The notes beneath the pieces were generated by a model, which saw only the letters and a list, made by a program, of their open reading frames with translations, had not been told where the DNA came from and searched no databases. The position numbers were made by a program, and so were the translations under genes. DNA of 42,149 nucleotides from a virus (lineage: Duplodnaviria; Heunggongvirae; Uroviricota; Caudoviricetes), in the IMG/VR virus record IMGVR_UViG_2541047883_000004; one strand, given 5' to 3'. Below are positions 1 to 36,057 of the stretch, one piece after another. Position 1 is the first letter of the stretch. Each line of letters opens with the position of its first letter.

Positions 1-2586
<2,586 letters not shown>

Positions 2587-31418: not shown

Positions 31419-31574
31419 TTACTCCTCAGGTTCGTAAGCTGTGAAGACAGCGACCTCCGTCTGGCCGGTTCGGATTCGTACCTCGCAGAGGTCTTTCCTC
31501 GTTACCAGTGCCGTCACTATGACGGTTAAACAGATGACGATCAGGGCGATTAACATCGCCTTTTGCTGCTTCAT
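31419..31574 (-). CDS. hok: Hok-family type I toxin
   Basis: MKQQKAMLIALIVICLTVIVTALVTRKDLCEVRIRTGQTEVAVFTAYEPEE, colinear with Hok (... [28 protein letters not shown]) as recalled. Confidence 0.85.
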   Translation of the reverse strand: MKQQKAMLIALIVICLTVIVTALVTRKDLCEVRIRTGQTEVAVFTAYEPEE

Positions 31575-33067: not shown

Positions 33068-33493
33068 TCATTTCAATAAATACCAAACATTTCCCTGATA
33101 AAATGCCAGTATGCGCTGCATAACTTCGCTCTTCCGGCACTCGCGACAGATTATGTTTAGACGACTGTCGTAGCGACGTATTTCTCCGTCAGGTAATGAC
33201 CAGATAAGGTCCGGATCAACCACAGATGTTTTTTTCTTCAGCTTTGCCCTTGAGAGTTTTTTGCGGGCATTTTGCCAGTCCTTACGAGCCTGTTCAGACG
33301 GGAATAATCCGTAACCAGAGTTGTATACATCGCCGCTGGCAACCAGCTCTCTGGCGAGAGTGCTTATGTAATACCTTGATGCACCGGTTTTAGCCTCCAG
33401 AGCCCGTAACGTCTCGCGACCACTCAGACGTACAAGTTCAACAACCTGCCCCTTAATTTTTTCTCGCTCTTCTTGTGTAAAAACTTTTGCCAC
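33068..33493 (-). CDS. HTH-containing hypothetical protein downstream of the replication gene
   Basis: 141 aa with a probable HTH (TGASRYYISTLARELVASG) and a basic central region; not P-, DnaC- or DnaB-like. Confidence 0.45.
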   Translation of the reverse strand: MAKVFTQEEREKIKGQVVELVRLSGRETLRALEAKTGASRYYISTLARELVASGDVYNSGYGLFPSEQARKDWQNARKKLSRAKLKKKTSVVDPDLIWSLPDGEIRRYDSRLNIICRECRKSEVMQRILAFYQGNVWYLLK

Positions 33494-33533: not shown

Positions 33534-34610
33534 TTACCCCCTGAAGCCCGGTGGAATTTCGGTATCCGGTTCAGAAATATGATTCACACAACGCTGGTTG
33601 TTCGTACCGCTTACCGGGAGCAACCAGGGGTTTTCAAAATTCCGGTCCGGTCCAAAAAACGTCGTCGCTCGCTGAACAAATTCCGTTCCCGTTTTCCCGG
33701 TAGCCGCCAGGTATCTTGCGTAACGCCTCACGCCATCCAGCATGGCCTCTGGTGGCACCCCCTCGCGTAATCTGGCCTTCCAGGCACTGAAAGCGGATTT
33801 CTTCGGGTTTGCCCCGGCACGCAACGGGTATTCCCGCCAGACCTGTTCGAACACATCAGGATAATCCACTCGTCCCACAGGCTGCCCGGTGTTTTCCGGG
33901 ACTACCCGATCGGCTTCCCGCTGAATGGCGGAATCGGCTTCAGGCTGCTGAAGTTGGTGTGATTGCTCCTGCCTTGCGGTCATCACCTGCTGCACAGCGC
34001 CCGAATCGGCTTTCAGCGCATACGCTGAATCGGCTTCCGGTGTCGTGCCTGCTGGCTGACCAAGATTGACGGTCTGAACATCCCCTGCCTGGTTCGCGGC
34101 GTTTTTTACGCCATGGACCATAGTGTTTTGATCTTCTTGATCTGTATCTTTATCTGTATCTTTATCTGTCGTGACTCGTCGTGACATGTGCGTGACATTT
34201 CGTGACTCGCCGTGACAATCGCCATTTTGTTCCCGCTTTCTTTCCCTCTCTCGCTGCGCCCTCTTGCGCTCTGCCGGAGATTTTGCGGTTTGCGAAATAT
34301 TACCGTTGTCCTCTTTCAGCACCTGGCGTTTTTCCCATCCAGTGATTAAATCACCATCAAGTACCCGCCCCTGCATCGTCTGCAAAATTGAATCAATTAC
34401 CTCTTCTGTCACGTCGAGCGCACTTGCCAAATCTTCTGTCGTGACATCAATGTGACCTCGCGTGACATTTCGTGACGCGCTCACCAGGAGGTGGATATAC
34501 ACTGCCATCACTGTTGCAATTGGCTGCCCTGACACCCTGGCAATTGTTCGCCACTTAGGGTCATTTGGCATGTCATGCCATAATCTGAGCCAGGCGTTAG
34601 CCATACTCAC
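33534..34610 (-). CDS. Putative replication initiator (O-like) with internal iteron arrays
   Basis: 358 aa in the lambda O position (after the cro and cII-position genes). Periodic GTCACG repeats lie inside the gene, as iterons do inside lambda O. Family assignment by position and architecture only. Confidence 0.5.
   Translation of the reverse strand: MSMANAWLRLWHDMPNDPKWRTIARVSGQPIATVMAVYIHLLVSASRNVTRGHIDVTTEDLASALDVTEEVIDSILQTMQGRVLDGDLITGWEKRQVLKEDNGNISQTAKSPAERKRAQRERERKREQNGDCHGESRNVTHMSRRVTTDKDTDKDTDQEDQNTMVHGVKNAANQAGDVQTVNLGQPAGTTPEADSAYALKADSGAVQQVMTARQEQSHQLQQPEADSAIQREADRVVPENTGQPVGRVDYPDVFEQVWREYPLRAGANPKKSAFSAWKARLREGVPPEAMLDGVRRYARYLAATGKTGTEFVQRATTFFGPDRNFENPWLLPVSGTNNQRCVNHISEPDTEIPPGFRG
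34127..34216 (-). repeat. Iteron-like array: 12-bp tandem repeat ATCTGTATCTTT x2.5, then 5 x CGTGAC at 10-11 bp spacing
   Basis: CGTGAC copies at 34170, 34180, 34191, 34201 and 34211 (plus strand), read directly from the sequence. Confidence 0.6.
34436..34477 (-). repeat. Second iteron-like cluster: 4 x (T/G)CGTGAC or TGTGAC at about 10 bp spacing
   Basis: Copies at 34441, 34452, 34462 and 34472 (plus strand). Confidence 0.5.
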
Positions 34611-35327: not shown

Positions 35328-35420
35328 GATTCGCTCCATAAAACTGAACGCCAAAAGTTTAATAATCAAAACCAAAGAAAGTCAAGAAACAAAACCATCT
35401 GTGTTTTAAAATCAAAACAT
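35328..35420. promoter_or_regulatory. Right operator/promoter region (OR, PR, PRM candidates)
   Basis: Palindromes GTGTTTT-N6-AAAACAT (35401-35420), AAAAC-N7-GTTTT (35390-35406) and AAACT-N11-AGTTT (35339-35360). The cI ATG overlaps the last operator. Confidence 0.55.
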
Positions 35421-36057
35421 GAACAAGCAAACAATATCTGAACGCATAACCCAACGTATGCATGCGCTAAACTTGAAAGGCAAAGACCTTGTCAATGCCA
35501 CTGGCGCATCAAAAGGCTCCGTAAGTCAATGGATGAACGGTGGAGGAGCGCCGTCCTCGCGTTACATAAGCTCACTGGCAAAGATATTGAAAGTAAACGA
35601 AAATTGGCTTCTTAATGGAGGAGAGTTAAATACAGGTGATTCGCTTGATCTATCTTTACCGCCGATAAAAACGGTTCCGCTACTATCACTTCAGCAGGCA
35701 GCAAGCTGGAGTGATTATATGAAAAATTCCTCAATAACCTCTTGTGTGCAGCTTGTCGGAGAAATCCCGGCCAATACCTTTGCTGTTGTTCTAGAGAGTG
35801 ACAGTATGTCGACATCTGGTGGTGGAGTTTCCATCCCAAATGGTTCAACAGTTTTTGTTGATCCCGATCGAATCGTACAACCAGGAAATATTGTCCTTGC
35901 CTTACCCAAAGGGACCACAACGCCTGTCATTCGCAAACTGGAGATAGAAGGGCCGGATATTCTTTTAGTCCCCACGAATCCTCGCTACCCTTCAATTATG
36001 CTGGATGATCTATCTTGCATATTGGGAGTATGCTTTAAAATTCAACAAGATATTTAA
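35419..36057 (+). CDS. cI: CI-type repressor (N-terminal XRE HTH plus C-terminal S24 LexA-like autopeptidase domain)
   Basis: HTH (LKGKDLVNATGASKGSVSQWMNG) and a C-terminal S24-like domain with Ser (DSMS) and Lys (VIRKL) context. Confidence 0.8.
   Translation: MNKQTISERITQRMHALNLKGKDLVNATGASKGSVSQWMNGGGAPSSRYISSLAKILKVNENWLLNGGELNTGDSLDLSLPPIKTVPLLSLQQAASWSDYMKNSSITSCVQLVGEIPANTFAVVLESDSMSTSGGGVSIPNGSTVFVDPDRIVQPGNIVLALPKGTTTPVIRKLEIEGPDILLVPTNPRYPSIMLDDLSCILGVCFKIQQDI

Follow-up and report, generated by a model that had tools for sequence, protein, structure and literature searches.

A candidate bipartite iteron-type replication origin inside the initiator gene of a lambda-like Escherichia coli prophage

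We analyzed the viral record IMGVR_UViG_2541047883_000004, a stretch of 42,149 nucleotides (nt) that we call the window. It is a nearly complete lambda-like prophage of Escherichia coli, adjoining rspB, and a stretch 100% identical to it is present in strain Ecol_316 and other complete genomes. The immunity and replication region runs on the minus strand in the order P22-type cro, a YdaT/cII-like gene, a gene for 356 amino acids (aa), and a DUF977 gene. The 356-aa gene (33534..34604, minus strand) is the replication initiator gene. It is counted here from the PGAP start codon, the ATG at 34604; starting at the upstream GTG (34610) would give 358 aa. Its product is a “hypothetical protein” for PGAP, a “phage replisome organizer” in NCBI nr, and a “replication initiation protein” in PHROG 3729. 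A reading made from the letters alone (the sequence-only reading) had proposed that two groups of hexamer repeats inside this gene are a candidate lambda-like origin. Conservation, co-variation of the repeat cores, and an adjoining AT-rich minimum support that proposal, and 34120-34476 is probably a bipartite iteron-type vegetative replication origin within the initiator gene.

The hexamer reads CGTGAC on the plus strand and GTCACG in the orientation of the gene. Five copies start at 34170, 34180, 34191, 34201, and 34211 (spacing 10, 11, 10, and 10 base pairs, bp), at the positions the sequence-only reading had given (34170-34216). They form array B (34170..34216, minus strand), five GTCACG with a gene-orientation spacing of 10, 10, 11, and 10 bp, which encodes the first part of the interdomain linker (CHGESRNVTHMSRRVT). 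Array A (34440..34476, minus strand) contains four iterons. Three are exact, with CGTGAC starting at 34440, 34461, and 34471, and one is a one-mismatch copy, TGTGAC, at 34451; in the gene this is GTCACG x3 and GTCACA x1, spaced by 10, 10, and 11 bp. A second cluster of four had been recognized correctly as a cluster, but it comprises three exact copies and one variant, and its coordinates (34441-34477) were one base off. In the predicted DNA-binding domain, array A codes for the last part of helix 29-45 and for the loop at residues 46-55 (SRNVTRGHIDVT), so both arrays lie inside the coding sequence, as had been said. A 17-mer, GTCACGAAATGTCACGC, is identical in arrays A and B, which points to concerted evolution of the arrays. 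In addition, a single inverted hexamer (34408..34413, plus strand), which encodes D-V-T, follows array A at a distance of 27 nt in the direction of the gene. The 42-kb window holds 25 exact copies of the hexamer, nine of them inside 310 bp, and we found no other hexamer cluster in it.

To quantify the regularity, we counted the copies of any hexamer that lie 9-12 bp apart within the gene. This phasing statistic was 7 for the initiator gene; 1000 dinucleotide shuffles gave at most 3, and 1000 synonymous codon permutations that preserve the protein gave at most 4. GTCACG itself occurs eight times in the gene, whereas the codon permutations averaged 1.6 copies and never had more than 6. Moreover, copies of the hexamer fall in all three reading frames (0, 1, and 2): GTC ACG gives VT, T GTC ACG / G GTC ACA gives CH/GH, and G TCA CG gives SR. 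The description of the repeats as VT/TD-rich peptide is therefore right for VT in one frame, and has to be extended to CH/GH and SR; a DKDT peptide is also present, and it comes from a 12-nt repeat described below. Being read in three frames and exceeding the permutations, the repeats are not mere codon repetition. Taking an iteron array as at least three short repeats in regular phase beyond chance, we find five and four copies here at 10-11 bp spacing. No DnaA boxes were found within ~900 bp of the arrays, which is neutral for an origin, and lambda ori does not need DnaA boxes.

The DNA of homologous genes was collected from five homologues and 51 further loci and contained 43 complete genes. 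The 51 loci, from one genome per species, include Enterobacterales, Pseudomonas, Bordetella, Janthinobacterium, Acidovorax, and metagenome-assembled genomes of Acidobacteria. Two arrays phased at 10-11 bp were present in ~38 of the 43 complete genes, at gene nt ~129-186 and ~345-500, and the hosts of the array-bearing homologues span Gamma-, Beta-, and Alphaproteobacteria and Acidobacteria. The core of the repeat changes with the lineage: GTCACG (26 loci), GTAACG, (C)GAACG(C), TAACGC/AACGCA, ACTACG, and CGCCAG. Within one gene, both arrays always carry the same core while the peptides that they encode differ; the sub-core ACG is common to every core but that of the single CGCCAG locus. When the proteins are aligned, with homologues as distant as 46% identity, indels concentrate at two places, which are exactly those of the two arrays. 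For array A, one example is an insertion of 7 aa, which is 21 nt or two iterons; in the allele P0019, array B has been lost. The start-to-start distance between the arrays ranges from 168 to 350 nt in the homologues, mostly 220-280 nt, with no common helical phase. A rigidly phased loop between the arrays is therefore not supported, as these distances vary without a common remainder. The repeats are real sites acting at the DNA level, because they are read in three frames, keep their position and phase, and have cores that change together in both arrays. Two of the findings that would have spoken against the sequence-only reading, absence of the repeats in homologues and simple codon repetition, are both excluded by the ~38 of 43 genes with two arrays and by the three frames.

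Directly after array B, in gene orientation, comes an AT-rich stretch (34120..34169, minus strand) that is purine-rich on the coding strand and encodes TDKDTDKDTDQEDQN. The 40-bp GC minimum of the gene (27.5%) is at 34120-34159, adjoining array B. Three tandem copies of a 12-nt AT-rich unit, the source of the DKDT peptide, occupy 34135-34170; this is the 12-bp tandem repeat that had been reported as 2.5 copies. By its composition and position, 34120..34169 is a candidate DNA-unwinding element. The same pairing is found in the family, with the 40-bp GC minimum within -12 to +18 nt of the end of array B in 35 of the 43 homologous genes. An AT-rich stretch placed after array B explains the conserved D/K/T/E-rich peptide past the iteron-coded residues. 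Array B and the AT-rich stretch together encode residues ~130-160, between the predicted N-terminal domain and the linker; array A is without an AT-rich neighbor of its own. Two GATC (Dam) sites, at 34130 and 34139, lie 9 bp apart within the AT-rich stretch, and each of the four homologues inspected (L002-L005) has at least one GATC at the equivalent place. Control of the candidate origin by Dam methylation or SeqA is possible, judging from these sites.

Just past the AT-rich stretch, we also observed the peptide NT[ML]VHG(E/V)KxA (34086-34118, minus strand), which is conserved down to 47% identity with synonymous variation. Its retention despite that variation indicates selection on the protein. 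The peptide moves with the C-terminal module, adjoins the exchange point of the N-terminal modules, and overlaps a palindrome, GGCG-N7-CGCC. This palindrome, seen at 7 loci, was discarded as a part of the origin: it is explained by the conserved HG(E/V)KxA and travels with the C-terminal module.

At the protein level, the N-terminal domain (module A; coding region 34218..34604, minus strand) is a predicted winged helix. Its predicted elements are helices at residues 4-14, 16-25, 29-45, 56-63, and 67-77, a beta hairpin at 78-87, and a basic helix at 110-127. The AlphaFold2 model of the domain has a mean pLDDT (predicted local distance difference test) of 79.8, and its fold matches are weak and confined to winged-helix proteins (E > 0.2). 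A disordered acidic linker (33908..34040, minus strand) contains four GAAGCCGAT(TC) repeats that encode the peptide PEADSA, and natural alleles carry 32-aa deletions between the copies of this PEADSA repeat. EADS-like peptides reappear in distant homologues of the initiator. The C-terminal helical domain X (33657..33857, minus strand) is common to initiators with other N-terminal modules, and its relatives in PHROG are named “DnaD-like helicase loader” or “primosomal protein”.

The gene had been called O-like. The whole initiator has no Pfam match at E <= 0.01, and Phage_rep_O (PF04492) is not listed for the N-terminal domain at E <= 10. Since there is no Phage_rep_O match, the initiator is, as far as its sequence tells, an analogue and not a homologue of lambda O, and “O-like” applies in the sense of analogy. 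The match of the N-terminal domain to PF09681 covered 119 of 121 profile positions with 16.6 bits (cut-off 23.3; E 0.008), and only one of 20 family members matched this profile. PHROG families annotated “replisome organizer” matched the initiator at E 5e-6 and 1e-4. We therefore do not assign the initiator to the PF09681 / SPP1 gp38 family, as the PF09681 match is below threshold and hhalign against gp38 gave a probability of 0.2%. A PDB profile search with the initiator family returned no relative, and searching for homologues with the last 124 aa gave nothing beyond 38 fragments, all near-identical.

Initiators of this type are mosaic. Behind module A stands domain X in some of them and a DnaT-like domain (PF17948) in others, and the arrays are kept in both cases. 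They are also kept whatever gene comes after a module A initiator: P-like, DnaC-like, DnaB-like, Toprim-DnaB, or one not related to replication. The arrays thus travel with the N-terminal module and not with the C-terminal half or the neighboring genes. The converse exchange is found in E. coli contig JARHMY010000002.1 (L059:3501-4610), where an unrelated module B (MRDYAKVSPRFWLG...) precedes a C-terminal half that is 95% identical. The module B gene has no GTCACG; it has two arrays of its own, made of AAGGGGCTT with 11-bp spacing, at nt 172-196 and 441-463. A purine-rich stretch that encodes QEQEQEKEQEQ comes next, where the DKDT-coding repeats would otherwise stand. Other initiator types, including L096 and L128, have array pairs of AAGGGTT, TAACGT, or GTCCGCA. 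Such pairs built from unrelated iterons indicate that the two-array design is a recurrent architecture and no accident of one gene. Initiators with a lambda-O-like N-terminus in the sample have a single array with ~22-24 bp spacing.

The replication module of the prophage has no helicase loader of its own. We found no P-, DnaC-, or DnaB-like gene in the prophage, in agreement with what had been noted for the gene that follows the initiator. That next gene, of 141 aa, encodes a DUF977 protein (33068..33493, minus strand; PHROG “Ren-like exclusion protein”) and starts 40 nt past the initiator stop, where relatives carry a loader gene. The sole nearby DnaC-family protein is the IstB ATPase just beyond the window edge, and it belongs to ISEc10, an IS21-like element that interrupts the prophage gene lom; the window begins inside its istA (1-1482, minus strand).

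The isolated coliphage Evi (PMC10910852) has this loader-less gene order too, and its arrays are identical; the order also occurs with intact open reading frames (ORFs) in at least 1561 complete E. coli genomes. Distant homologues of the initiator have a DnaC-like gene immediately downstream. In all loader-less contigs, the DUF977 gene lies at a constant +40 nt after the initiator; in loader-containing forms, it is mostly ~1.5 kb and in some ~0.77 kb downstream, past the DnaC-like gene, the longer forms having one more gene. A clean deletion of the loader gene was rejected as the 40-nt spacer is unlike the flanks of the loader-containing forms, and the loader-less form looks like the product of a module replacement, judging from these junctions. 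Initiator-only modules are a recognized class: they were reported in 34 of 314 lambdoid phages of Enterobacterales, including the viable phage LLS, and their replication “is not yet understood” (PMC12315714). The earlier suggestion that the module is incomplete or non-canonical holds for the second term. With the same order in Evi and in at least 1561 genomes, and with a recognized initiator-only class, it is unlikely to be incomplete; it is probably non-canonical but functional.

The initiator ends in a tail, NQRCVNHISEPDTEIPPGFRG (33537..33599, minus strand), that matches the last 21 residues of E. coli DnaT. Over the shared last 21-25 residues, 15 of 25 positions are identical (pairwise E 9e-8), with the common end ..EPDTEIPPGFRG, and the differences between the initiator and dnaT tails at third codon positions indicate selection on the peptide. 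With the DnaT family model NF002770, only the last 24 residues of the initiator match (18 bits against a cut-off of 201 bits). The DNA-binding domain of DnaT (PF17948) is absent from the initiator and present in relatives sharing its N-terminal module. The RAST-type name “Primosomal protein I” consequently overstates the relation, as only the tail matches DnaT. The initiator of LLS (gene 44, L063:6214-7068), otherwise unrelated, ends in ..DTKIPEGFRG.

A scan of viral contigs for the tail motif retrieved 75 initiator-like ORFs, whose N-termini are of at least eight different kinds. They are followed by a DnaC-like gene in 35 cases, by DUF977 without a loader in 27, and by none of the replication references in 10; for the remaining three there was too little downstream sequence. 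Among the 72 contigs that extend far enough downstream, none had a P-like, DnaB-like, or Toprim-DnaB gene next to the tail ORF. Some viral contigs have a DnaC-like gene that others with an identical initiator lack. In the genome sample, it is the tail-less module A initiators that P-like, DnaB-like, or primase-helicase genes accompany, and the hosts are mostly non-enteric. In the E. coli host, dnaC follows dnaT after 2 nt (dnaT at L184:491-1030), and the phage DnaC-like protein of the homologous locus L004 is 50% identical to host DnaC.

On this pattern of gene neighbors, we tentatively suggest, at somewhat less than even chances, that the tail (S/T)xPDxxIPxGFRG, which E. coli DnaT has in common with many enterobacterial phage initiators of otherwise unrelated sequence, is a short docking motif for a loader of the DnaC type or for the DnaB-DnaC complex, through which initiators without a loader gene would use the host loader. 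The sample of viral contigs is phylogenetically non-independent, and joint inheritance may be all that links the tail with the DnaC-like gene; PriA or PriB could also be what the tail binds. In the sections consulted of the published DnaT work, including a 2026 preprimosome paper, no partner is assigned to the DnaT tail. An older study reported that DnaT without residues 154-179 has lower affinity and cooperativity on single-stranded DNA. The recruitment of DnaB-DnaC by DnaT in replication restart is an unresolved step (PMC13377028). If true, the docking motif would account for the replication of the initiator-only lambdoid phages (this prophage, Evi, and LLS) and would point to the contact by which DnaT passes DnaB-DnaC to the restart site. 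It would also suggest a common origin of the host dnaT-dnaC operon and the phage pair of initiator C-terminus and DnaC-like gene.

Putting these elements together, replication would proceed as follows. A pR-like promoter (35356..35385, minus strand), recognized by consensus match only, lies upstream of cro; transcription from it would pass through cro and the ydaT-like gene and then across the initiator gene with its two arrays, and would yield the initiator. The winged-helix N-terminal domain would then bind the iterons head-to-tail on one helix face, with one site per turn. Initiator molecules on arrays A and B, which are 260 bp apart, may form one higher-order complex, and strain from this complex could open the AT-rich stretch beside array B. 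The C-terminal helical domain and the DnaT-like tail, at the far end of the long acidic disordered linker, would recruit host DnaB-DnaC in place of the loader that the phage lacks. That the N-terminal domain binds the iterons, that the arrays cooperate, and that the DNA opens is what we infer from the sequence features.

Several points weigh against this interpretation. The helicase recruitment step is purely conjectural. The role of array A is the weakest point, since inter-array distances without a common helical phase disfavor a rigid loop. The winged-helix assignment depends on a model with weak fold matches. Co-inheritance of the arrays with the N-terminal module is partly unavoidable, the arrays being inside the initiator gene. 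Besides, we found no paper in the open-access literature on the origin of this initiator family, and the papers on the “Eru” replication units of Shiga toxin (Stx) phages deal with gene content only and not with origins.

The arrays could instead bind the initiator or another phage protein for control, through autoregulation, a roadblock, titration or handcuffing as in P1 incA, or exclusion, and the origin would then lie elsewhere, or consist of array B and the AT-rich stretch, with array A purely regulatory. The 260 bp between array A and the AT-rich stretch, the lack of such a stretch beside array A, and the missing helical phase between the arrays across homologues would fit this explanation. 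There are also precedents for such roles: for oriR, the second site of the SPP1 organizer, a role that includes fork stalling has been proposed (PMC6316719), and cloned lambda ori iterons produce a replication-inhibition phenotype (PMC3349717). However, the 42-kb window has no other hexamer cluster that could be an iteron-type origin instead, homologues throughout the family keep an AT-rich stretch beside array B, and the recurrence of the two-array layout with unrelated iterons (module B family, L096, and L128) suggests one functional unit. We thus regard this control explanation as unlikely. At the level of the protein, the repeats might serve a repetitive linker or loop peptide, or derive from replication slippage, without any role as DNA sites. 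They do encode low-complexity peptide whose length varies between alleles. Nevertheless, the three frames yield three different peptides (VT, CH/GH, and SR), the protein-preserving codon permutations never reach the observed count, and the same core is found in both arrays despite their differing peptides, with the cores shifting together between lineages, which makes this explanation highly improbable.

It may also be asked whether the replication module is a decayed relic that lost a DnaC-like loader, with a silent origin whose repeats have not yet decayed. The DnaC-like gene downstream of distant initiator homologues, the identical initiators with and without such a gene in viral contigs, the IS21-like insertion in lom, and the loss of array B in some alleles, such as P0019, could all be understood in this way. 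Against decay, the loader-less order is found in Evi (PMC10910852), in 27 of the 75 tail-bearing viral contigs, and in the at least 1561 complete E. coli genomes, and LLS is viable with an initiator-only module (PMC12315714). Host DnaC, 50% identical to the phage-type loader, is available, and the rest of the prophage looks complete. A relic is, in our judgment, quite improbable, and a bipartite origin within the initiator gene remains our preferred explanation.

An origin inside the initiator gene is of a known kind, with lambda and SPP1 as examples. Lambda ori, within gene O, is one precedent. In SPP1, oriL lies in gene 38 and combines direct repeats with an AT-rich unwinding element (PMC6316719). 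The likeness to lambda concerns the location in the initiator gene where the N-terminal domain for DNA binding meets the C-terminal domain for recruitment (the domains of O are treated in PMC5509034), the iteron array followed by an AT-rich strand-asymmetric stretch, and the place in the pR operon, after cro and a cII-like gene. In both systems, an N-terminal module and its iterons are swapped without regard to the C-terminal module and its partner, and vice versa. The sites are nevertheless different: lambda has four palindromic sites of ~19 bp, whereas here direct cores of 6-8 bp recur each 10-11 bp. In addition, the second array here is inside the region coding for the DNA-binding domain, and there is no P gene.

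As in SPP1, the organizer has two separate repeat sets, although its binding to them is predicted here, and the NCBI name “replisome organizer” is the same. In SPP1, however, oriR is ~13 kb away, whereas the second array here is 260 bp away in the same gene; SPP1 encodes the loader gp39 and the helicase gp40, whereas the prophage encodes neither; and gp38 has no significant sequence relation to the initiator. The prophage shares with the LLS class a single-gene replication module without helicase or loader (PMC12315714), and the tail of LLS O is DnaT-like, but LLS has a lambda-O-like N-terminal domain, a canonical C-terminal domain of the Phg_2220_C type, and other linker repeats. With DnaT, the initiator shares the last 21-25 residues, and the host dnaT-dnaC layout resembles the 35 viral contigs in which an initiator with the tail is followed by a DnaC-like gene. 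The initiator lacks the N-terminal domain of DnaT and any PF17948 match, and it is proposed to act at a sequence-specific origin, whereas DnaT acts at abandoned replication forks.

In the open-access literature, we found no origin assignment for this widespread initiator family, no description of a bipartite 10-11-bp architecture with an array overlapping the loop of a DNA-binding domain, and no link of the DnaT-like tail to loader-less modules. If true, the bipartite 10-11-bp iteron origin would be an undescribed architecture common to a large family of proteobacterial phages. As array A overlaps the sequence coding for a loop of the DNA-binding domain, this loop and its putative binding sites must co-evolve. 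The arrays give exact coordinates for a candidate minimal origin, and the idea of a docking tail addresses an open question, namely how initiator-only lambdoid phages load their helicase (PMC12315714).

Finally, we made some minor observations on the neighboring genes. A cI-like repressor ORF of 212 aa (35419-36057, plus strand) has HTH_3 at residues 17-64 and Peptidase_S24 at residues 113-197. RefSeq annotates only its last 112 aa (35719-36057), as “LexA family protein”, and this annotation appears N-terminally truncated. Downstream of the replication gene, as is the DUF977 gene, lies a HokD-type toxin gene (31419-31574, minus strand).

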